Positions 313 to 9,443 of a DNA stretch of 20,211 nt are shown in pieces (positions within the stretch are counted from its first letter, which is position 1; each line of letters starts with the position of its first letter). The stretch is from Nanobdellota archaeon (GTDB taxonomy: Archaea; Nanobdellota; Nanobdellia; Woesearchaeales; GW2011-AR4): NCBI GenBank assembly GCA_038046385.1, contig JBBSWH010000013.1, positions 1 to 20,211 on the forward strand, written 5' to 3'. The position numbers and the translations under genes were made by a program. The notes under the pieces were generated by a model that was not told the DNA's origin, did no database searches, and saw nothing but the letters and a program-made list of their open reading frames with translations.

Positions 313-332
313 GAAAAACAAAACTTTTAAAA
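313..332 (+). promoter_or_regulatory. Putative archaeal BRE/TATA promoter for the leader peptide and aro operon
   Basis: Purine-rich GAAAAACAAAAC followed by TTTTAAAA (325-332), 25 nt before the ATG at 358. Similar spacing occurs before the ATGs at 10646, 12126, 13098, 14931, 15958, 18767, 18887 and 19342. Confidence 0.5.
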
Positions 333-357
333 AGAGAGAGGGATTAACATATTTAAG

Positions 358-426
358 ATGGAAAATATTGCTTCAAATTCAAATGTGAAATTCTTTTCTT
401 TTAGATATTTCTATTTCTGGCAGTAA
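358..426 (+). CDS. Putative Phe/Tyr/Trp-rich attenuator leader peptide, 22 aa (MENIASNSNVKFFSFRYFYFWQ)
   Basis: Translated by hand from ATG 358 to TAA 424-426. It has 5 Phe, 2 Tyr and 1 Trp within the last 11 codons and none in the first 11. It ends 104 nt upstream of the DAHP synthase gene. Confidence 0.75.
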   Translation: MENIASNSNVKFFSFRYFYFWQ

Positions 427-521
427 GCCAGACTACTACAGTTATTTGCGGCATTTACAATTTAAGTCCTGATAGGGCTATGTTAATTTTTAGCCAATAA
501 TAAGATTCAAACAGATGGAGG
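416..521 (+). promoter_or_regulatory. Leader region with short alternative hairpins and the SD of the first gene
   Basis: TCTGGC-AGTAA-GCCAGA hairpin (416-432) over the Trp codon and stop. GTCCT/AGGGC (466-478) and GGCTA/TAGCC (476-495) are mutually exclusive. SD GGAGG at 517-521. Confidence 0.45.
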
Positions 522-530
522 AAAAATAAA

Positions 531-1547
531 ATGATAATCGTATTAAAACCAAACGTGTCAAGGGAAGAAATAGAAGATATATCAAACAAACTAAAAGAAA
601 GAAGCCTAAAACCGGTGGAATTCGACGGGGTTGAAAGAACCGTAATCCACGTCCTGGGAAACGTGACTGATGAAATTGCAAGCCATTTTGGCTCCTTCAA
701 TTGCGCTGAAAGTGTAGTAAGGATAATGAAGCCCTTCAAGTTAGCAAGCAAAGAACATCAATCCCAAAAAACAGTGATAAGAGTCGGAGATGTATCAATA
801 GGGAATGGTGATGTGGTGATGATTGCAGGGCCTTGTTCAGTAGAATCAGAAGAGCAGATAATGGAATCTACGGAGATGCTAAAGAAACTAGGCGTTAAAA
901 TAATGAGGGCATCTGCATTCAAGCCAAGAACTTCCCCATATGAATTTCAGGGACTTGGGATAAAAGGATTAAAGCTGTTAAAGAAAGCAAGGGAGAAAAC
1001 TGGAATCCTAGTTGAAACGGAAGTTATGGATGTAAGAGATGTTGCAATTGCAGCAGAGTATGCTGATGTTTTAAGGGTTGGAGCAAGAAACATGCAAAAC
1101 TATGACCTATTGAAGGAGCTAGGAAAGATAAACAAGCCAGTTATATTAAAAAGAGGAATGTCAGCTACAATAAATGAATTCGTAATGGCAGCTGAATACA
1201 TATTATACCACGGCAATACAGATGTAATATTGTGCGAAAGGGGAATAAGAACATTCGAGACAGCTTACAGGAACACTTTGGATATAGGGGCAGTTGCAGT
1301 CTTAAAGAACTTAACCCATCTTCCTGTTATAGTTGATCCCAGCCATGCAGCCGGAAACAGAGAATTAGTTCCACCGTTAAGCAAGGCAGCAGTTGCTGCA
1401 GGAGCTGACGGGTTATTAATAGAAGCGCATCCTCACCCGGATAAAGCCTTAAGCGATGCAGCGCAATCGTTGTACCCAGAGCAACTGGCAAAGCTAATGG
1501 AAGAATTGAGGCCAATATGCAAAGCTGTGGGAAGGAAGTTAGCATAA
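531..1547 (+). CDS. aroF: 3-deoxy-D-arabino-heptulosonate 7-phosphate (DAHP) synthase, type I-beta, with N-terminal ferredoxin-like/ACT regulatory domain
   Basis: Motifs [47 protein letters not shown] and ALSD. N-terminal MIIVLK...GVERTVI regulatory domain. SD GGAGG. Confidence 0.96.
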
Positions 1548-1548
1548 A

Positions 1549-2649
1549 ATGGAAACAATAAATGCAAAAATAAAGATAAGAGAGAAGGAATACCAACTCT
1601 TTGTAGGCAGTAATATATTAGGCAAACTGGCAGATTTTGTAAAAAAAAATCATCTAGGGAAGAAAATTGCCGTCATAATAGACGAAAACACAAACAAACT
1701 GCACAAAGACAAAATAAATAAGGTATTAAAAGACTTAACCCCTTTATTCATAACAGTTCCTTCTGGAGAATCAAGCAAGTCAAGGGAAATGAAGGAAAAG
1801 ATTGAAGACAGGATTTTAGATAATAAATTCGGAAGAGACAGCTTGATTATCGCAATTGGCGGCGGAGTAATTGGAGATCTGTCAGGATTTGTGGCTTCGA
1901 CTTTCAACAGGGGAATTCCGATAATTCATGTGCCAACAACTTTATTGGCTATGGTTGATTCTTCAATCGGCGGAAAAACCGGAATTAACACAAAACATGG
2001 AAAGAATTTGATTGGAACAACCTACCAGCCTGCTGCAGTTTTTGCAGACATGGATTTTCTGGAAACATTATCTGATGAAGAATTTAGGAATGGGCTGGCT
2101 GAAGTAATCAAGATTTCAATAATTATGGACAAGGCAATGTTTGAGTCACTGGAGAAAAACAGCAAAAAAATACTTGCGAGGGATAAATCTACCATGCAAA
2201 AACTAATCAAAAGAAACATTGAACTAAAAAAAGAAATTGTGGAAGAAGATGCAGAAGAAAAGGGATTAAGGCAGGTTCTAAACTTCGGGCATACTTTTGG
2301 CCATGCTTTGGAAGCATATTGTAAATACAAAATCAGGCACGGCTATGCTGTAAGCCAAGGGATGCTTGTAGAGTCAAAAATATCTGTTGCGGTCAATAAT
2401 CTAAGCAAAAATGAAGAGAAAAGGATAAGGAACCTGATAAGGCTATTCGGCTTTCCTTTGACAGCAAACATGGATGTTAAAGCATCTAAAATCATTGAGC
2501 TGATGGGGTCTGACAAGAAATCAATAAATAGCAATCCAAGATTTGTTTTGATTAACTCTATAGGCAAAGTAAAATCCAAAGATAATCATTTCTCGTTTGA
2601 AGTGGGAAGGTCTGCAATAGAAAAATCCATTGAAGAATACAAATATTGA
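1549..2649 (+). CDS. aroB: 3-dehydroquinate synthase (bacterial type)
   Basis: Motifs GGGVIGDLSGFVAS, RGI..VPTTLLAMVDSSIGGKTGIN, KNLIG, GLAEVIK, LNFGHTFGHALE, HGYAV and DKK. Confidence 0.96.
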   Translation: METINAKIKIREKEYQLFVGSNILGKLADFVKKNHLGKKIAVIIDENTNKLHKDKINKVLKDLTPLFITVPSGESSKSREMKEKIEDRILDNKFGRDSLIIAIGGGVIGDLSGFVASTFNRGIPIIHVPTTLLAMVDSSIGGKTGINTKHGKNLIGTTYQPAAVFADMDFLETLSDEEFRNGLAEVIKISIIMDKAMFESLEKNSKKILARDKSTMQKLIKRNIELKKEIVEEDAEEKGLRQVLNFGHTFGHALEAYCKYKIRHGYAVSQGMLVESKISVAVNNLSKNEEKRIRNLIRLFGFPLTANMDVKASKIIELMGSDKKSINSNPRFVLINSIGKVKSKDNHFSFEVGRSAIEKSIEEYKY

Positions 2650-2678
2650 TACAATAAAAAAGCAGGAAACACGATAAA

Positions 2679-5600
2679 ATGACTGAAATAAATCCAATTA
2701 AAAATCTGAATGCGACTGTTTTAGTTCCAGGAAGCAAGTATATAGCAAACAGGCTTTTGGTTATATGCGCATTGGCTGATGGAATTTCAATTCTAAAAAA
2801 TGTTCCGGATAATGAGGATATAAACAACTCAATAAATGCTTTGCAGCAATTTGGGATAAAGATTGAAAAGAATAACGGCACATTGACAATAGTCGGGACT
2901 GGCGGGAAGCTAAAAGCTCCAAAAAATATGATAAATGTAGGAGATTCTGGCACTTTGCTGAGGTTTATTGCGGGATTTGCAGCTTTAGTAGCAGGAAAAA
3001 CAACAATAACCGGGAGCAAAAGAATACAGGAAAGGCCTATCTCTGAGTTATTGAAAAGCCTAAGTGATTTGGGTATAAAGTGTAAATCAACTGACAGCCA
3101 CACACCAATTACAATAAGAGGAGGTAATCTTAAAGGAGGCAAAACAGGAATCAACGGAAGCGTAAGCAGCCAGTTCATTAGTTCCCTGCTTATGATAGCC
3201 CCTTTTGCTAAAAACAATGTTGAAATAGATATAGGCGGAAAACTGGTTTCTTCTGAATATGTTGATTTGACAATCAGCCTGATGAAAGAGTTCGGAGTTA
3301 AAGTTGAAAGGAAAAGAAATCAATTCAAAGTAAATTCGAATCAGAAATACAATCCGGGAAATTTTACAATTCCTGCAGACTGGGCTTCTGCAAATTACTT
3401 TTTAGCGGCTGCAGCCATAGTTCCTGGAAAGATTATGATAGGCAATCTGGATTTTAATCTGAAGCAGCCGGAATCTGGGTTTTTCAGGTTATTGGAAAAA
3501 ATGGGCTGCAAAGTTTCAATTAGTGCAAACTCAATAAAAATTATTGGGAATAATAAATTAAAATCTATTGACGCCGATATGTCATCTATGCCGGATTCAG
3601 CGCAAACTCTGGCAGCTATTGCATTGTTTGCAGACGGAAAAACAAGAATAAAAAATATTGGAAATTTGAAATTCAAAGAGTCAGACAGGATTAGTGACAC
3701 TGCAAGCGAATTAAGAAAGTTAGGTGCAAATGTTAAAGTAAAAAATGATGAATTAATAATAACAAAATCGCAATTAAAGCCTGCAATTATTGATTCGCAT
3801 AATGACCACAGGATGGCAATGAGCTTTGCCATTGCAGGATTGAAAATTCCTGGAATAAAAATAAATAATCCTGAATGTGTGAACAAGTCATTTCCGGAAT
3901 TTTTTGATAAGCTAAAAAGCATGTGGTCTCAATCAAGCCAATCCAAAAACATTGTCCTTATAGGATACAGGGGCGCCGGAAAGACTTCGATAGCCAAAGA
4001 GCTGTCAAAACTTGCAGGAATGCCAATTATTAGCACAGATGAAGAAATTTCAAAAAAAGCAGGAATTAAGTTGGAAGATTTAATCAGAAAATCAGGCTGG
4101 AAAAAATTTAGGGGTTTGGAAAATGAAGCCATCAGCAATTTAGAAAACACAAGCGGAGCAATAATAGACTGTGGTGGGGGAGTTGTTGAAAATAAAAACA
4201 ATATCAAGACGCTAAAAAAAAATGGGACTGTATTTTGGCTTAAAGCCCCTGTAAAAGTTTTGGCTGGAAGGATAGAATATTCAAGAAACCGGCCGTCAAT
4301 AACAGGGAAAAAATCTTTTACAGATGAAATTGGAGAAGTTTTAGAGAGGAGGACCCCGCTATACAGGAAAGCCGCGGATTTTGAAATTGAAACCTCAAAT
4401 AAAAGTCCGATTAAAGCTGCAAAAGCAATAATGGAACTAAAAAATAATGTGATGAAAACAAAAATCTGTGCAGTCATAACCGCAGATAATGTAAAAGATG
4501 CACTTAATGATATGGGGAAATCAGTATCGGCAGATTTGATGGAATTAAGGCTGGATTTTATCAGGGATATCGACAATAATAAGGTCGAATCATTAATTAA
4601 AAATTCATCAAAACCGATTATTGCAACATGCCGCCCTGCTAAATTTGGAGGAATGTTTAAAGGAAATGAAAAAGAAAGGCTGAAATTATTGAAAACTGCA
4701 ATGGATAGCGGCGCGGATTTCGTTGATGTTGAATTTGGATCAGAAGTTGCGAAGATTATAGCCGATATCGGCGCAGCTTCCAAAATAATAATCTCACATC
4801 ACAATTTCAAAGAAACTCCTTCGCTGGCAAAACTTGATTCATTGTACAGAAACATGAAAAAATTGAATCCCGATTTGATAAAAATAGTAACTGCTGCTAA
4901 TTCAATTAATGACAATTTTATTATATTTAATTTGTTGAAAGGAAAAAAAGATTTGATTGCATTTTGCATGGGGTGGAAAGGGGAGATATCAAGAATCCTT
5001 GCAGGAAAATTTGGATCAAGGCTGGCTTATTGCTCTATAAAAAAAGGGGAAGAATCTGCGCCGGGGCAAATTACACTGGATGAAATGCAAAATCTTTATC
5101 ATGCCAGCTTAATAAACAGGGAAACAAATGTCATAGGGATTATAGGAGAATTTGCGGAAAATTCAATGTCAAAATACATGCACAACCCAAATTTTTTGAA
5201 AAATGATGCGGATTTTGTTTATGTTCCGTTCAAAGCGGCAAAAAACGAATTGAAATATTTCATGAAAAACTTCAGAAAATTTAATTTTAAAGGAGCTGCA
5301 GTCACAATCCCGCATAAAGAGGAAATAATAAATTATATTGATGAGCTTGATGAAACTGCAAAGCAGATTGGGGCAACAAATACTTTGGTCAATAAAAATA
5401 ATAAGATTACGGGGCACAATACAGATTACTATGGCGCTGTTCATGCTTTGAAGGAACAGGCCAAAATCAAAAGCAGGAAAATCCTCGTCCTGGGGTCAGG
5501 AGGAGCCGCAAGGGCAGTTGTTTACGGATTAAAGAAAGAAGGAGCTAAAATCACAATAGTCAACAGGACAGATGAAAAATCAAGGAGATTAGCGAATGAA

Positions 5601-5945
5601 TTTAAAGTTCAGTTTGGTAAATTCAGCAATATAAACAGTTTAGTTAGAGACAATGACATCATAATTAACACAACCAGCGCTGGAATGTCTCCAAATGAAA
5701 ATGATTCAGTTTTGGGTGAAGAGGATTTAGTTAAAGGCAAGATTGTGATGGACATTGTCTACAAGCCGGTTAATACTAAATTAATAAGGATGGCAAAGAA
5801 AAAAGGATGTAAAACCATTACTGGGGACAGAATGCTTATACATCAAGCTGTAAGGCAATTTGAATTATGGACCGGAACAAATCCTGGGTTTAAGAGTATG
5901 GAGAAAGAATTAGTAAAACAAATTAATAAAACTGAGAAAAGGTGA
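2679..5945 (+). CDS. aroA: Tetrafunctional AROM-like protein: EPSP synthase (AroA) + shikimate kinase (AroK) + type I 3-dehydroquinate dehydratase (AroD) + shikimate dehydrogenase (AroE)
   Basis: AroA, aa ~1-415: PGSK, SGTLLRF, SSQFISS, KESDR, DHRMAMS, KSFP. AroK from aa ~423 (nt 3945): [18 protein letters not shown]. AroD from aa ~592 (nt 4452): ELRLD, TCR, SHHNF, KIV, FCMG, SAPGQ. AroE from aa ~815 (nt 5121): [41 protein letters not shown]. Confidence 0.94.
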
Positions 5946-5949
5946 AACT

Positions 5950-7044
5950 ATGTCTGGAAATTCATTCGGAGAGTTGTTTAAAATAACCAACTGGGGAGAA
6001 AGTCATGGAAAGGCGATTGGAGTTGTTGTAGATGGATGTCCATCGATGCTGGAGCTGGATGAGATTTATATCCAAAAATTCCTTGACAGGAGGGCGCCGG
6101 GACAAAGCGAGGTTACAACACAAAGGCAGGAGCCAGATAAGGTGGAAATAATTTCAGGCTTATTCAACGGAAAGACAACAGGAACGCCAATATGCATGAT
6201 TATCTTCAACAAAGAGTTCAAAAGCGCAGATTACAATGAAATTTCAAAAGCATTCAGGCCAAGCCACTCAGATTTTACATATGAGAAAAAATATGGGATA
6301 AGGGATTCATCAGGAGGGGGAAGAAGCTCTGCAAGGCTTACAGCAGGAAATGTTGCAGCAGGAGCGATTGCATACAAAATCCTTAATGAAAGGTTTGGAA
6401 TAGAGATTATTGCTTATGCAAAGCAGATTAAAGATATTAAAGCGGAAATTGATTCTGAAAAAGTTTCAAAGAAAGATATAGATTCAAATATAGTTAAATG
6501 CCCTGATAAAAACGCAGCAAAAGAAATGATAAAACTGATTGAAACTGCAAAAAACAACGGAGACTCAGTAGGCGGGATTATAGAATGTGTAATAAGGAAT
6601 GTCCCTGCTGGGCTTGGAGAGCCGATATTTGACAAATTGGAAGCTGATTTGGCAAAGGCAATGCTTTGCATTAATGCAACAAAGGGATTTGAAATAGGTT
6701 CAGGATTTGAAGGAATTAAAATGCTCGGCAGCCAGCATAATGATTCTTTTGTAATGAAAAGCGGAAAAATAATGACAAAAACAAACAATTCAGGAGGAAT
6801 ACAGGGCGGAATTTCAAACGGGATGCCTATAATTTTTCGGGTTGCTTTCAAGCCGACATCTACAATTCAAAAAGAACAGGATACTGTTGACATCAAAGGG
6901 AAATCCGTTAAAATGGAAATAAAGGGAAGGCATGATCCATGCGTTTTGCCAAGGGCAGTCCCGATAGTCGAGGCAATGGCCTCCTTGGTTCTTTGCGATC
7001 ATTATTTAAGGCAAAGAGCGCAAAATGGTGATAAATTTGATTGA
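5950..7044 (+). CDS. aroC: Chorismate synthase
   Basis: Motifs [39 protein letters not shown] and GRHDPC. SD AGGTGA upstream. Confidence 0.97.
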
Positions 7045-8047
7045 TGAGTTAAGAAAATCGATTGATAAATTGGACAGGGAAATATTGAATATTCTTTCCA
7101 AGAGAAAAGGCTTGGTAAAAGAAGTTGGAAAACTAAAAAAAAGCTTAAACTTCCCTGTTTTTGATAAAAAAAGAGAAGATAAAATTATAAGCAATATATC
7201 AAAAGAAGCAAAACGATTGGGATTGGACGCAGATTCTGTCTCTGATATTTTTAGTTCTATTTTCCAAAGTTCAAGGAGCGAGCAGCAGAAACAAATGCAT
7301 AAAATAGACTGCAGTGTCAAAAAAATAGGCCTTATTGGATTTGGAAGATTCGGAAAGCTGATTGTCAGGCACCTTTGCAGTGATTTTGAGTTTTATGTTT
7401 ACGATAAATATGACAAGAAAAAAGAAATTTTGGAAAATAATGCAAACCCTGCGACATTAAGCGAGGCATGCATCCAAAAAATAGTAGTGCTTGCTGTCCC
7501 CATCTCAGAAATTAAAAACACATTAAACAATATAAAAAACCTGCTGAAAAATGATTCGGTTGTGATTGATGTTTGTTCTGTAAAAGAATATCCTGTTAAG
7601 CTTATGAAGAACATACTGCCCAAAAATGTCCAGATTCTTGCAACTCATCCGATGTTCGGGCCTGATACGGCTCATGGCTCATTGGAAGGGAGGAAAATAG
7701 TTTTGTGCAGGGTAAGAATTGACAATAAGTCATATTTGCAGATCAAAAGGTTCCTCGAAAGCAAGCAGCTTAGCGTAATAGAGGCAACTCCTAAGCAGCA
7801 TGACAGAGAGATAGCCAAGTCCCTTGTATTGACCCACTTTATAGGGAGGGCTTTGATTGATATGAAAGCATCTTCTTTGGAAATTGACACAAGAGGGTAT
7901 CGTGATTTAATCAAAATACTGGATACTGTAAAGAATGACACATGGCAGTTATTTGATGATATAAACAAGCACAATAAAAATTCGGCAGAAGTAAGAAAAA
8001 ACCTTATTAAATCATTAAATAATGTAGAAAGGAGGCTAAAAAAATGA
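7025..8047 (+). CDS. tyrA: Bifunctional chorismate mutase (AroQ) / TyrA-family prephenate or arogenate dehydrogenase
   Basis: N-terminal [14 protein letters not shown]...VG..K...D..RE chorismate mutase domain. Rossmann [22 protein letters not shown] and HD motifs. Overlaps the end of aroC; TTG at 7037 is a possible alternative start. Confidence 0.9.
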
Positions 8048-8865
8048 AAGTTGCATACCAGGGCATAAAGGGAGCTTACAGCGAAGCTGCAGTTTACAGG
8101 CATTTTGGGGATGGTGCCGAAGCGTCCGGATTTGATCTTTCAGAAGAGGTTTTTGATGCCTTAAAAATGGAAAATGTGGATTTTGGCCTTTTGCCTTTTG
8201 AAAATACAATTGCAGGAAGTGTTGCAATAAACTATGACCTGCTTCTCAAAAGCGAAACTAAAGTTATAGCTGAAGTTTATCTTCCTGTAATCCACTGCCT
8301 TTTGGCATGCAAAGGATTTAAACTGAGCGATATCCATACGGTTTATTCACACCCTCATGCCCTTGAACAATGCAGAGAATTCATAAGGAAGAATAAGCTA
8401 AAAGCAATTCCTGAGTATGACACTGCCGGCGCAGCGAAAATAGTCTGGGAAAATCTTAGGAAAGGGGAGGCTGCAATATCTTCTGAATACTGTGCCAAAA
8501 TATATGGGCTGGAAGTGCTTGAAAAGGGGATAGAGACTAATAAGAATAACATAACTAAGTTCCTTGTTTTTGTCAGAAGCGATAAATTTCCTGGCGGGAT
8601 AAAAAAAGAAAAGACAAGCATTGCATTTAAGACAAAGCATTATCCTGGAGCATTAATAAACTGCCTGCAAAGGCTTGCAAAGCACAACATAAGCCTGACA
8701 AAGCTCGAATCAAGGCCTATTCCTGAAAATCCGTGGGAATATGTGTTTTATGCTGATTTTGAAGGAGGGATTGATGATGAAAAAGTTAAGCTCGCACTTA
8801 GTGAAATGGAAGCATCTTCTCTGTTCCTAAAGATATTAGGCAGTTACCCTAAAGGAAAATTATAG
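8044..8865 (+). CDS. pheA: Prephenate dehydratase with C-terminal ACT domain
   Basis: Motifs VAYQGIKGAYSEAA, PFENTIAGSV, SHPHALEQC, DTAGAA, NITKF, PGAL and LTKLESRP. ATGA overlap with tyrA. Confidence 0.95.
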   Translation: MKVAYQGIKGAYSEAAVYRHFGDGAEASGFDLSEEVFDALKMENVDFGLLPFENTIAGSVAINYDLLLKSETKVIAEVYLPVIHCLLACKGFKLSDIHTVYSHPHALEQCREFIRKNKLKAIPEYDTAGAAKIVWENLRKGEAAISSEYCAKIYGLEVLEKGIETNKNNITKFLVFVRSDKFPGGIKKEKTSIAFKTKHYPGALINCLQRLAKHNISLTKLESRPIPENPWEYVFYADFEGGIDDEKVKLALSEMEASSLFLKILGSYPKGKL

Positions 8866-8928: not shown

Positions 8929-9147
8929 ATGTGTTTATGCAAAAAATGCAGTAAATTAACAGGAGTTATGGTATTGGTTCTTGGCGTTTTGTTTCTGCTG
9001 AGAGACCTTAATGTGTGGGGTTTTTGGAACGTAAGCTGGTGGACAGCAATGTTTTTAGTGGCAGGAATGATAATGTATGGTTCAACATGCTGCCCTGAAT
9101 GCCAGACAGCGTGCTGTGATATGCCGGCAAAGGGAAAGAAGAAGTAA
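8929..9147 (+). CDS. Small Cys-rich two-TM membrane protein (DUF5668/LiaF-TM-like)
   Basis: GVMVLVLGVLFLL...WW...LVAG hydrophobic hairpin flanked by CxCxxC and CCxxC..CC. SD GGTGAT, a TTTTATA box upstream and a T-rich tract downstream. Confidence 0.7.
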   Translation: MCLCKKCSKLTGVMVLVLGVLFLLRDLNVWGFWNVSWWTAMFLVAGMIMYGSTCCPECQTACCDMPAKGKKK

Positions 9148-9242: not shown

Positions 9243-9323
9243 CATGCTCAAAAGCACAAAAATCTTTAGATTTTTGGCTCCCGAAAATCTTCGATTTTCG
9301 TGGAATACTCAATTTTTGACATG
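9243..9323. repeat. Composite palindromic repeat (MITE/REP-like) abutting the tRNA 5' end
   Basis: Outer arms CATGCTCAAAA (9243-9253) and TTTTTGACATG (9313-9323) enclose CAAAAATC-TTTA-GATTTTTG (9257-9276) and CGAAAATC-TTC-GATTTTCG (9282-9300). Confidence 0.7.
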
Positions 9324-9443
9324 CCGAGATGGCACAACCTGGCACTGCGTAAGCCTGGAAACTTGCTTTTGGGCAAGTCCCGAACGCAAGTGAGGCAAGC
9401 TTATTTCCGAAAGGATTTCTGAGTTCAAATCTCAGTCTCGGCG
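9323..9443 (+). tRNA. tRNA-Ser(GGA) with a 37-nt anticodon-loop intron (about 9361-9397)
   Basis: Acceptor stem GCCGAGA/TCTCGGC with G73. D stem GCA/TGC with GG in the loop. Anticodon stem TAAGC/GCTTA with spliced loop CT-GGA-AA. Long variable arm TCC-GAAA-GGA. T arm CTGAG-TTCAAAT-CTCAG. No encoded CCA. T tract at 9444-9458 and TTTATATA at 9185-9192. Confidence 0.9.

Follow-up and report, generated by a model that had tools for sequence, protein, structure and literature searches.

Organization of the locus

The window, by which we mean the whole stretch of 20,211 nucleotides (nt) from contig JBBSWH010000013.1 of a Nanobdellota archaeon (order Woesearchaeales, assembly GCA_038046385.1), encodes a six-gene operon for the shikimate pathway and the synthesis of Phe and Tyr. 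A short open reading frame (ORF) whose last codons are mostly aromatic ends 104 nt before the first gene of the operon, which encodes DAHP synthase (aroF). The presence of a leader ORF with cognate codons ahead of this archaeal aromatic operon is well supported by the comparison of homologous loci. We consider it probable, from the features described below, that this gene encodes a leader peptide through which the ribosome senses Phe and Tyr and controls the shikimate/Phe/Tyr operon of this DPANN archaeon, whatever the output of the sensor. The features of the leader region are as follows.

321-334 (+): archaeal promoter read from the sequence, an A-rich stretch resembling a B recognition element (BRE) and a TATA box (TTTTAAAAA at 325-333)
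358-426 (+): leader ORF of 22 codons, MENIASNSNVKFFSFRYFYFWQ followed by a stop; ATG at 358, TAA at 424-426, probably leaderless, free of a Shine-Dalgarno sequence upstream
391-420 (+): U-rich run of aromatic codons, FFSFRYFYFW, at which the ribosome is proposed to stall
416-432 (+): hairpin H1, formed by TCTGGC (416-421) and GCCAGA (427-432), whose loop contains the stop codon
452-481 (+): conserved box CATTTACAA ... TGATAGGGCTAT, from alignments, with a weak hairpin H2 (465-470 / 474-479)
487-491 (+): T5 run read from the sequence, candidate archaeal oligo-T termination signal in the spacer
517-521 (+): GGAGG, Shine-Dalgarno sequence of the DAHP synthase gene (GGAGG or GGTGA precedes the aroF ATG in relatives)

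The genes of the operon, assigned from their Pfam matches, are listed below.

531-1547 (+): DAHP synthase with a ferredoxin-like N-terminal (FXD) domain
1549-2649 (+): DHQ synthase
2679-5945 (+): AroA-AroK-AroD-AroE fusion
5950-7044 (+): chorismate synthase
7025-8047 (+): chorismate mutase-prephenate dehydrogenase
8044-8865 (+): prephenate dehydratase-ACT
531-8865 (+): the whole six-gene operon, the proposed regulated unit, from Pfam matches and ORF coordinates

An initial annotation of this DNA, made from the sequence alone, had described a 22-codon ORF with eight aromatic codons (5 Phe, 2 Tyr, and 1 Trp) in 10 positions and had placed it directly upstream of a shikimate/Phe/Tyr operon. The sequence confirms the count, at positions 391 to 420, and the Pfam matches of the six genes agree with the identity of the operon, whose last steps are the Tyr and Phe branches. 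The fused gene at 2679-5945 (+) encodes a single protein of 1,088 residues that contains EPSP synthase, shikimate kinase, type I dehydroquinase, and shikimate dehydrogenase, in this order. Directly after the operon there is an ORF of 72 residues (8929-9147, +) with a weak LiaF-like transmembrane match and a long oligo-T tract at its end.

Conservation of the aromatic tail

The density of aromatic codons is unexceptional by itself. In the six frames of the genome (1.28 Mb in 19 contigs, 85% complete) there are 51 stop-to-stop segments with at least 8 aromatic residues in 10. Short ORFs with at least 6 aromatic residues among the last 12 are found in 10% of random windows of 700 nt, and those with at least 8 in 0.8% of them. 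The caveat that Phe and Tyr codons arise easily by chance in AT-rich DNA, already raised in the initial annotation, holds for the density. A scan of the whole genome gave 153 short ATG ORFs (15 to 45 codons) preceded at 27 to 33 nt by a TATA-like hexamer, and the leader is alone among them in having an aromatic tail (at least 6 in 12). Although the density does not do so, the conservation of the leader ORF in relatives places it, in our assessment, well beyond chance.

The AroF gene is present in 24 of the 43 genomes of the genus. A short upstream ORF with a terminal aromatic run occurs in 24 of the 26 same-genus aroF loci; the exceptions are a locus with 134 nt before the contig end, which does not align (L110), and a partial match (L026). 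Among public loci with an archaeon in the record title, 25 of 32 have such an ORF (defined by at least 6 aromatic residues in the last 12, within 700 nt upstream of aroF). The comparison of the regions upstream of orthologous aroF genes, which had been suggested in the initial annotation, thus reveals short ORFs with clustered Phe and Tyr in both sets. The seven public loci that were missed are diverse. One is the same contig-end case (L030), another has aroF directly behind a transketolase gene (L075), and in a third the aromatic cluster is distant from the C terminus (L095). No leader was found within 700 nt upstream of aroF in three others (L043, L066, and L083). The last one (L046, from a record named "uncultured Methanosarcinales") does have a homologous leader, and its stop-proximal hairpin is the same, but several aromatic residues have given way to Cys, Ile, and Leu (...LDSILICFCFYC before the stop). 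This leader may be decaying or may have an altered specificity.

After the removal of duplicates, we retained 38 distinct archaeal leaders, of 15 to 38 residues, separated from aroF by a median of 103 nt (range, 70 to 521). Their last 12 residues are 61.6% aromatic (38% Phe, 20% Tyr, and 3% Trp), compared with 6.5% in the six genes of the operon, and the final aromatic codon lies 0 to 2 codons before the stop in every one of them (38/38). In group A, which is the group of the window, the tail is ...SF(R/S)YFYFWQ. Group B leaders read M.KIENLMA.IGFAFYRLFSSF(K/R)YFFFYFKY. Those of group C have forms such as ...KLD.F.YF.YF., with a K/R-L-D motif ahead of the run. Single leader forms were also found in other families and in one record labelled as Micrarchaeota. 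The groups have little in common beyond the aromatic tail, a diversity that would be hard to explain without selection on the tail.

Promoter and probable start of the transcript

The leaders are preceded by a conserved promoter box, AAA..TTTAAA(T/A)A, which is cTTTAAAAA in group A and, in the remaining groups, TTTAAATA. Both the box and the start were found in 34 of the 38 loci examined, and in 24 of these 34 the first T of the box lies 28 to 32 nt before the leader ATG, in a search window of 20 to 40 nt that is biased toward such distances. No Shine-Dalgarno sequence was found between the TATA box and the leader ATG. Three other genes of the window have a TATA-like box about 31 nt before their ATG, also without a Shine-Dalgarno sequence, in agreement with the earlier remark that the leader has the spacing of other apparently leaderless genes in this DNA. 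Hence, because the TATA box is about 30 nt before the ATG and a Shine-Dalgarno sequence is lacking, the leader is probably the 5' end of a leaderless mRNA, with a start site placed by the spacing of the TATA box.

Selection on the leader ORF

The coding signal is clearest in group B, for which we analyzed 12 loci (two of them identical). In the last 27 codons, the entropies at codon positions 1, 2, and 3 are 0.27, 0.30, and 0.75. The mean rate of nonsynonymous substitutions (dN) is 0.13, the mean rate of synonymous ones (dS) is 1.21, and the median dN/dS is 0.10. Both alternative frames contain stops in every sequence. The initial annotation had pointed to conservation with synonymous variation as a mark of a genuine leader, and in this subgroup we do find purifying selection. 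All seven group A loci keep an open frame between the ATG and the stop despite lengths that vary from 20 to 24 codons, and the alternative frames contain stops, except for one frame in L117. The N-terminal half of these leaders seems free to vary, with only the frame and the tail being held. This is the pattern expected of a leader and not of a working protein.

These results bear on two alternative explanations. In the first, the ORF would encode a small functional protein, aromatic or hydrophobic, that shares the operon with aroF and is not a sensor. The peptides of group B are indeed as conserved as AroF (identities of 0.78 and 0.79, with 0.67 at the non-aromatic positions), which would allow the nascent chain to have a role; their low dN/dS and the K/R-L-D motif before the run of group C could also be expected of a protein. 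However, only the C-terminal aromatic run, the position of the stop, and the hairpin are retained between groups. The length of the peptide changes more than twofold among the leaders, the N-terminal half varies freely in the group of the window, and the ORF is always first, be it ahead of aroF or ahead of a gene inserted before aroF. Furthermore, the protein collection contains only 1 of the 10 leader ORFs queried, and this one has no name. We find the small protein improbable.

In the second explanation, the T-rich tract and the hairpin would be a DNA or RNA element, such as the terminator of an upstream transcript or the binding site of a protein, and the frame would be a by-product. Phe and Tyr codons readily arise in T-rich DNA, the genome has the 51 comparable segments mentioned above, and oligo-T is the terminator signal at the gene ends of the window. 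Yet, the synonymous variation of group B is codon-periodic, and in nearly every leader the interruptions of the T-run give Tyr or Phe instead of Leu, Ile, Val, or Cys, with the exception of L046 and its Cys, Ile, and Leu. The spacing between the in-frame ATG and a conserved TATA box is fixed, and the frame survives insertions and deletions. We regard a nucleic acid element without a translated leader as very improbable.

A hairpin at the stop codon and elements of the spacer

A hairpin is found at or just after the stop codon in all groups, with unrelated stem sequences. Neither this hairpin nor H2 with its T5 run figures in the initial annotation. In L112, the equivalent of H1 is GGCTG/CAGCC, at the same position. 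The hairpin of group B has a stem of 9 to 10 pairs that begins within the stop codon. Over 10 pairs, 90.7% of the cells are paired, compared with 18 to 46% in slid registers. Four of the 10 pairs have changes on both sides, and none of 500 shuffles reached the covariation score. The stems of group C have 7 to 14 pairs, begin 0 to 7 nt past the stop, and are also unrelated in sequence. When we folded the 75 nt that start 10 nt before the stop, the result was better than for dinucleotide shuffles in 20 of 20 loci (mean z score of -1.68). For the preceding 75 nt, the mean z score is -0.16, with negative values in 12 of the 20 loci.

Consensus folding with RNAalifold recovers only the hairpin at the stop in groups A, B, and C, and it supports no competing second helix in groups A and B. 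In group C, we could read by eye a second conserved helix that crosses the first one (CTAAACC/GGTTTAG in L034 and CTAAATCT/AGATTTAG in L037). A particular case in group B is L008. Instead of the usual stop hairpin, it has two AU-rich hairpins that overlap by sharing TGAAATTTTT, and a T-run follows one of them. Together they resemble a terminator/antiterminator alternative, an arrangement seen only in L008.

Groups A and B have a common box after H1, CATT..., followed by TGATA...CTAT; the related box of group B reads CATTG ... TGATAAAACTATA. Its distance to H1 is constant and its distance to aroF is variable. The pairing of H2 is kept in L001, L004, and L111 and degenerate in L002, L003, and L112 (by eye). 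We considered the box as an internal promoter and rejected this option, given that it lies at anything from about 16 to 50 nt from the aroF ATG. A simple scan for terminators flags the region 465-479 and its tail, i.e., a hairpin of 6 pairs with a T5 run beginning 8 nt later. Runs of at least four Ts occur within about 15 nt after the box in 6 of the 7 loci of group A (L117 is without one), and the genes of the window end in oligo-T runs without hairpins. A GC hairpin with a U-run was not found before aroF in the archaeal loci, nor was a U-run found after H1 in the other archaeal loci. The absence of a classic terminator, stated earlier for the window, is thus confirmed there and extends to these loci. 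Rfam gave zero matches at the gathering score in the window and only chance-level matches over positions 300 to 560 when E values up to 10 were accepted. In the leader regions of 20 related loci, it gave a single match, a 5S rRNA gene upstream of the leader of L036 (positions 1100 to 1215 of that locus, slightly less than 100 nt before the leader ATG). We found no repeats of note flanking the operon.

The leader, H1, and the box are intact in two loci where an acetyltransferase-like gene without a Shine-Dalgarno sequence comes next (L005 and L010). They are also intact in two loci despite a GC-rich insert of 130 to 200 nt before aroF (L004 and L111). The persistence of the module in these contexts argues for an output that is local to the spacer and does not involve pairing with the ribosome-binding site (RBS) of aroF. 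As to the inserts themselves, the one in L005 and L010 contains an ORF of about 145 to 168 residues that looks acetyltransferase-like by eye, and those in L004 and L111 are apparently structured. Neither tRNA genes nor Rfam matches were found in the long-spacer inserts.

The last point concerns a third explanation, translational attenuation. The U-rich tract, when free (or the region of H1), would pair with the purine-rich RBS of aroF, and a stalled ribosome would free the RBS. The partner of the aromatic tract in minimum-energy folds is often the Shine-Dalgarno region or a downstream A-rich tract. In group B, UUUUUUUACUUU could form 12 pairs with AAGGUGAGAAAA, 3 of them G-U, as judged by eye. 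Across 33 loci, the modelled accessibility of the RBS increases from 0.40 when the leader is free to 0.48 with a ribosome on the aromatic codons. There is also a precedent in the leaderless polycysteine ORFs of mycobacteria (bioRxiv 10.1101/834739, accessible text). However, the accessibility is equally 0.48 with the ribosome at the stop, such that the model does not separate the two states, and for the window the values are 0.45 when free, 0.43 when stalled, and 0.37 at the stop. The registers of the pairing vary by locus, duplexes of 6 to 7 AU or GU pairs are expected from composition, and the module is kept before the gene devoid of a Shine-Dalgarno sequence and before the long inserts. Altogether, we consider translational attenuation to be unlikely. 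Two other pairings were set aside. An outer AU helix between the aromatic tract and the downstream A-rich tracts is often predicted, with shifting registers, and was treated as opportunistic. Between leader codons -16 to -10 and the start of aroF, 11 pairs form in two of 13 loci and 5 to 7 in the other 11, which is not beyond composition.

Amino acids probably sensed and candidate leaders of other operons

The initial annotation proposed that one leader integrates all three aromatic end products. We could not find the TrpA, anthranilate-synthase-type (Chorismate_bind), or HisG families in the genome, at its 85% completeness. Trp is absent from the group B leaders shown here, and the Trp codon of the window lies within an arm of H1. 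Because Trp genes were not found, the operon ends in the Tyr and Phe branches, and Trp is rare in the tails (3%), the sensor is best read as one of Phe and Tyr, not of the three amino acids as proposed.

Leaders cognate to other amino acid operons had also been suggested as something to look for in this genome. Among 939 short ATG ORFs upstream of long ORFs, there were no convincing runs of Trp, His, or other codons. A few candidates with aromatic or Thr codons were discarded, since they precede unrelated or dubious ORFs or correspond to oligo-T terminators. Elsewhere in the order, a TrpE-like gene is present in 48 of 301 genomes. We analyzed 27 TrpE-like loci, after exclusion of three from unpublished genomes, and 11 of them have a mini-ORF of 8 to 14 codons, M-x-SDC-x-W-..., with one invariant Trp codon (L125, L130 to L133, L135, L138, and L141 to L144). 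It lies 53 to 206 nt upstream of the TrpE-like ATG and encodes, for example, MKSDCPWR, MISDCPWQN, or MSSDCRWL before the stop. These mini-ORFs have a TATA box upstream, a conserved box downstream, and insertions in threes; no consensus structure and no Rfam match was found for them. They may be Trp leaders or an RNA motif, and the two cannot be told apart because the core is conserved at all three codon positions. We take this as a lead and not as a result. No His leader was found in 27 hisG loci of the order, where many hisG genes follow another coding gene. A run of four His codons in L176 was rejected, because it has no in-frame ATG, GTG, or TTG start and is absent from a relative of the same genus (L178).

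Archaeal origin of the genome and of the contig

The initial annotation assumed an archaeal host and noted that a bacterial contig would remove the archaeal novelty. The markers that we found are archaeal. Public records whose AroF is the closest carry the labels Candidatus Woesearchaeota, Nanoarchaeia, or Nanoarchaeota, with some automatic labels of "uncultured Methanosarcinales." The genome encodes a TATA-binding protein (TBP), and the same search matched only four archaeal genomes among the controls. In two genomes of the same genus, the TBP gene and the leader-aroF locus are about 40 kb apart on one contig (G001, contig 9, and G024, contig 15). The window includes a tRNA gene (9323-9443, +) whose anticodon region is interrupted by a 39-nt insertion (intron). 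It has a long variable arm, and TTTTTTATTTTTTG comes after it. This gene has a score of 38 bits with the Rfam tRNA model in local search and was undetected by ARAGORN and by the whole-window Rfam scan. The contig of the window also carries a Ski2-like helicase gene. A bacterial origin of the contig is unlikely because of the TBP, including its linkage to the locus in relatives, the intron-bearing tRNA, the Ski2-like helicase, and the genes with TATA boxes and no Shine-Dalgarno sequence. Two lineages of AroF, those of groups A and B, which are about 53 to 58% identical, exist inside one genus, and one genome with 4% contamination holds both (G017, loci L002 and L025).

A model for the control of the operon

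The best reading of these observations is that the locus is an attenuator of a new, archaeal form. Transcription would begin at the ATG or a few bases off, as suggested by the spacing of the TATA box. The first ribosome would translate about 20 codons and reach the Phe/Tyr run, which ends 0 to 2 codons before the stop. If charged tRNA-Phe or tRNA-Tyr were scarce, the ribosome would dwell on the U-rich run, cover it, and keep H1 melted. Given the established sizes of ribosome footprints, a ribosome that decodes the final few codons would have the 5' arm of H1 inside its mRNA channel. If the supply were good, the ribosome would reach the stop and depart, the U-rich tract would become exposed, and H1 would fold. 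The exposed U-tract and H1, together with the box and the T-run, would then end or cut the transcript within the spacer of about 100 nt. The operon would be on under shortage of Phe or Tyr because the stalled ribosome would prevent the transcript from being ended or cut in the spacer.

The data show the conserved ORF with its aromatic run, the spacing of the promoter, the hairpin, and the archaeal origin. Several of the steps of the model, i.e., the stalling, its effect on H1, and the output, are ones that we infer, and among the outputs we favor the control of transcript ending or processing by the ribosome over the occlusion of the RBS. Once a sensor is granted, ending or processing in the spacer is a plausible output, if short of a probable one. 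Occlusion of the aroF RBS is then a weaker candidate, and other outputs make up the rest. One can imagine a more specific mechanism, in which the Phe/Tyr run doubles as a U-tract termination signal. The starved ribosome would hide this tract and H1 from the recognition of oligo-U by FttA/aCPSF1 or from RNA cleavage, in an archaea-specific attenuation that would be widespread in DPANN and may have a Trp counterpart. Taken as a whole, this specific version is doubtful. Its core, a stalled ribosome that would mask the U-rich tract from FttA/aCPSF1, had been put forward in the initial annotation and is one of two leading ideas on the action of the element.

A number of observations weigh against the model and should be kept in mind when interpreting it. 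The H1 of the window has only 6 pairs. Here the stop-proximal 75 nt are only slightly better folded than shuffles (z score of -0.68), and the whole leader is no better than them (z score of +0.80). H1 is also the sole conserved structure that is supported, and an alternative pairing of the antiterminator type was not found. T-runs of at least five are present in the spacers of only 10 of 19 loci. The codons of Phe and Tyr are T-rich, in a genome with a GC content of 38%. The first 10 codons of group A have no excess of variation at third positions (0.69/0.73/0.71), and because of this the coding evidence in the window's own group consists of the kept frame and the aromatic tail only. The closest relative (L110/L030, whose aroF is 89% identical) has no leader in the 134 nt before its contig end. 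Finally, related genomes are non-independent samples.

Comparison with known systems

Attenuation by leader peptides is a textbook mechanism of bacteria that depends on translation being coupled to transcription. The classical attenuators, such as that of the hisL leader, are explained by a model of four segments that form alternative hairpins. The leader peptides of enterobacteria include trpL and pheL (PMC11802643, accessible text). The archaeal locus resembles pheL, trpL, and hisL in that a biosynthetic operon is preceded by a short ORF with a run of codons cognate to it. It differs from them in that the terminator/antiterminator alternative and the intrinsic terminator were searched for and not found here, and in that there is no match to an Rfam leader family. 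Full-text searches, which covered papers free of subscription, yielded no report of a leader-peptide attenuator in archaea, their amino acid operons included, and none on this locus. This agrees with the view of the initial annotation that the mechanism is not established in these organisms. Upstream ORFs (uORFs) are said in general terms, in a paper describing a tool, to regulate genes in archaea too (PMC10219788), and ribosome profiling in Haloferax reported uORFs without showing attenuation (PMC7261190).

In Corynebacterium glutamicum, aroF is preceded by a leader named aroR (Neshat et al. 2014, as described in PMC11802643), which is said in this review to act by transcription attenuation. 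According to the same text, Phe-Tyr-Phe codons are contained in this short leader ORF, which immediately precedes the DAHP synthase gene, as is the case here. Compared by description only, the locus of the window differs from this bacterial leader by its archaeal host, its probably leaderless mRNA, the run that abuts the stop, and the lack of a GC hairpin with a U-run.

Homologous bacterial loci, with labels of Bryobacteraceae, Solibacteraceae, or Acidobacteriota and an AroF 54 to 57% identical to that of the window, also have short ORFs with clusters of Phe, Trp, and Tyr, such as ...SFRFWWYYRITRV... and MSLFDAKSFTYWYWGFTLSG. To judge from their sequences, these loci are classical attenuators (L068, L078, L085, L089, L090, L098, L099, and L103). 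Their clusters, such as SFRFWWYY or SFTYWYWGF, are close to the archaeal SFRYFYFW. The bacterial ORF extends 6 to 11 codons beyond the cluster in two of the three that were read out, and in the third the stop is immediately behind it. Just before the bacterial aroF there is a GC-rich hairpin with a U-run, whereas the archaeal leaders stop 0 to 2 codons past the run and have H1 instead. No Rfam match was found in the two bacterial leaders scanned (L090 and L099). In a quick, midpoint-rooted tree of AroF with 96 rows, those of archaea and those of bacteria are intermixed. One clade is made up of groups A and C and lies beside a clade of Vicinamibacteria whose loci have no leader; group B forms a separate clade. 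The archaeal leader could either descend from a bacterial one or have a parallel origin, and a quick tree of this kind gives no direction of transfer.

The locus is a concrete and conserved archaeal candidate whose parts can be mutated, notably the start codon, the aromatic codons, the hairpin at the stop codon, and the downstream box. Since the terminator of bacteria is lacking here, the output of the archaeal leader could reveal how termination or RNA processing in archaea is tied to the position of the ribosome. DPANN archaea are usually viewed as dependent on their hosts. Our analysis shows that Phe and Tyr are made by some of them, which appear to regulate the pathway as well.

Two further systems are instructive for the possible output. 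The Escherichia coli tna operon is regulated by a ribosome that is held at the end of the tnaC leader and masks the stop-adjacent RNA needed by Rho; TnaC senses free tryptophan by means of its nascent peptide. This provides an analogy for the output that we propose, with the charging of tRNA as the putative signal and FttA/aCPSF1 as the candidate factor. The leaderless polycysteine ORFs of mycobacteria are similar in other respects. They are a leaderless first cistron in which cognate codons sense charged tRNA, and they need no intrinsic terminator, according to the accessible text of bioRxiv 10.1101/834739. There, the host is bacterial and a stable RNA duplex that hides the RBS was demonstrated by mutation, whereas such a duplex is unsupported in the archaeal locus.

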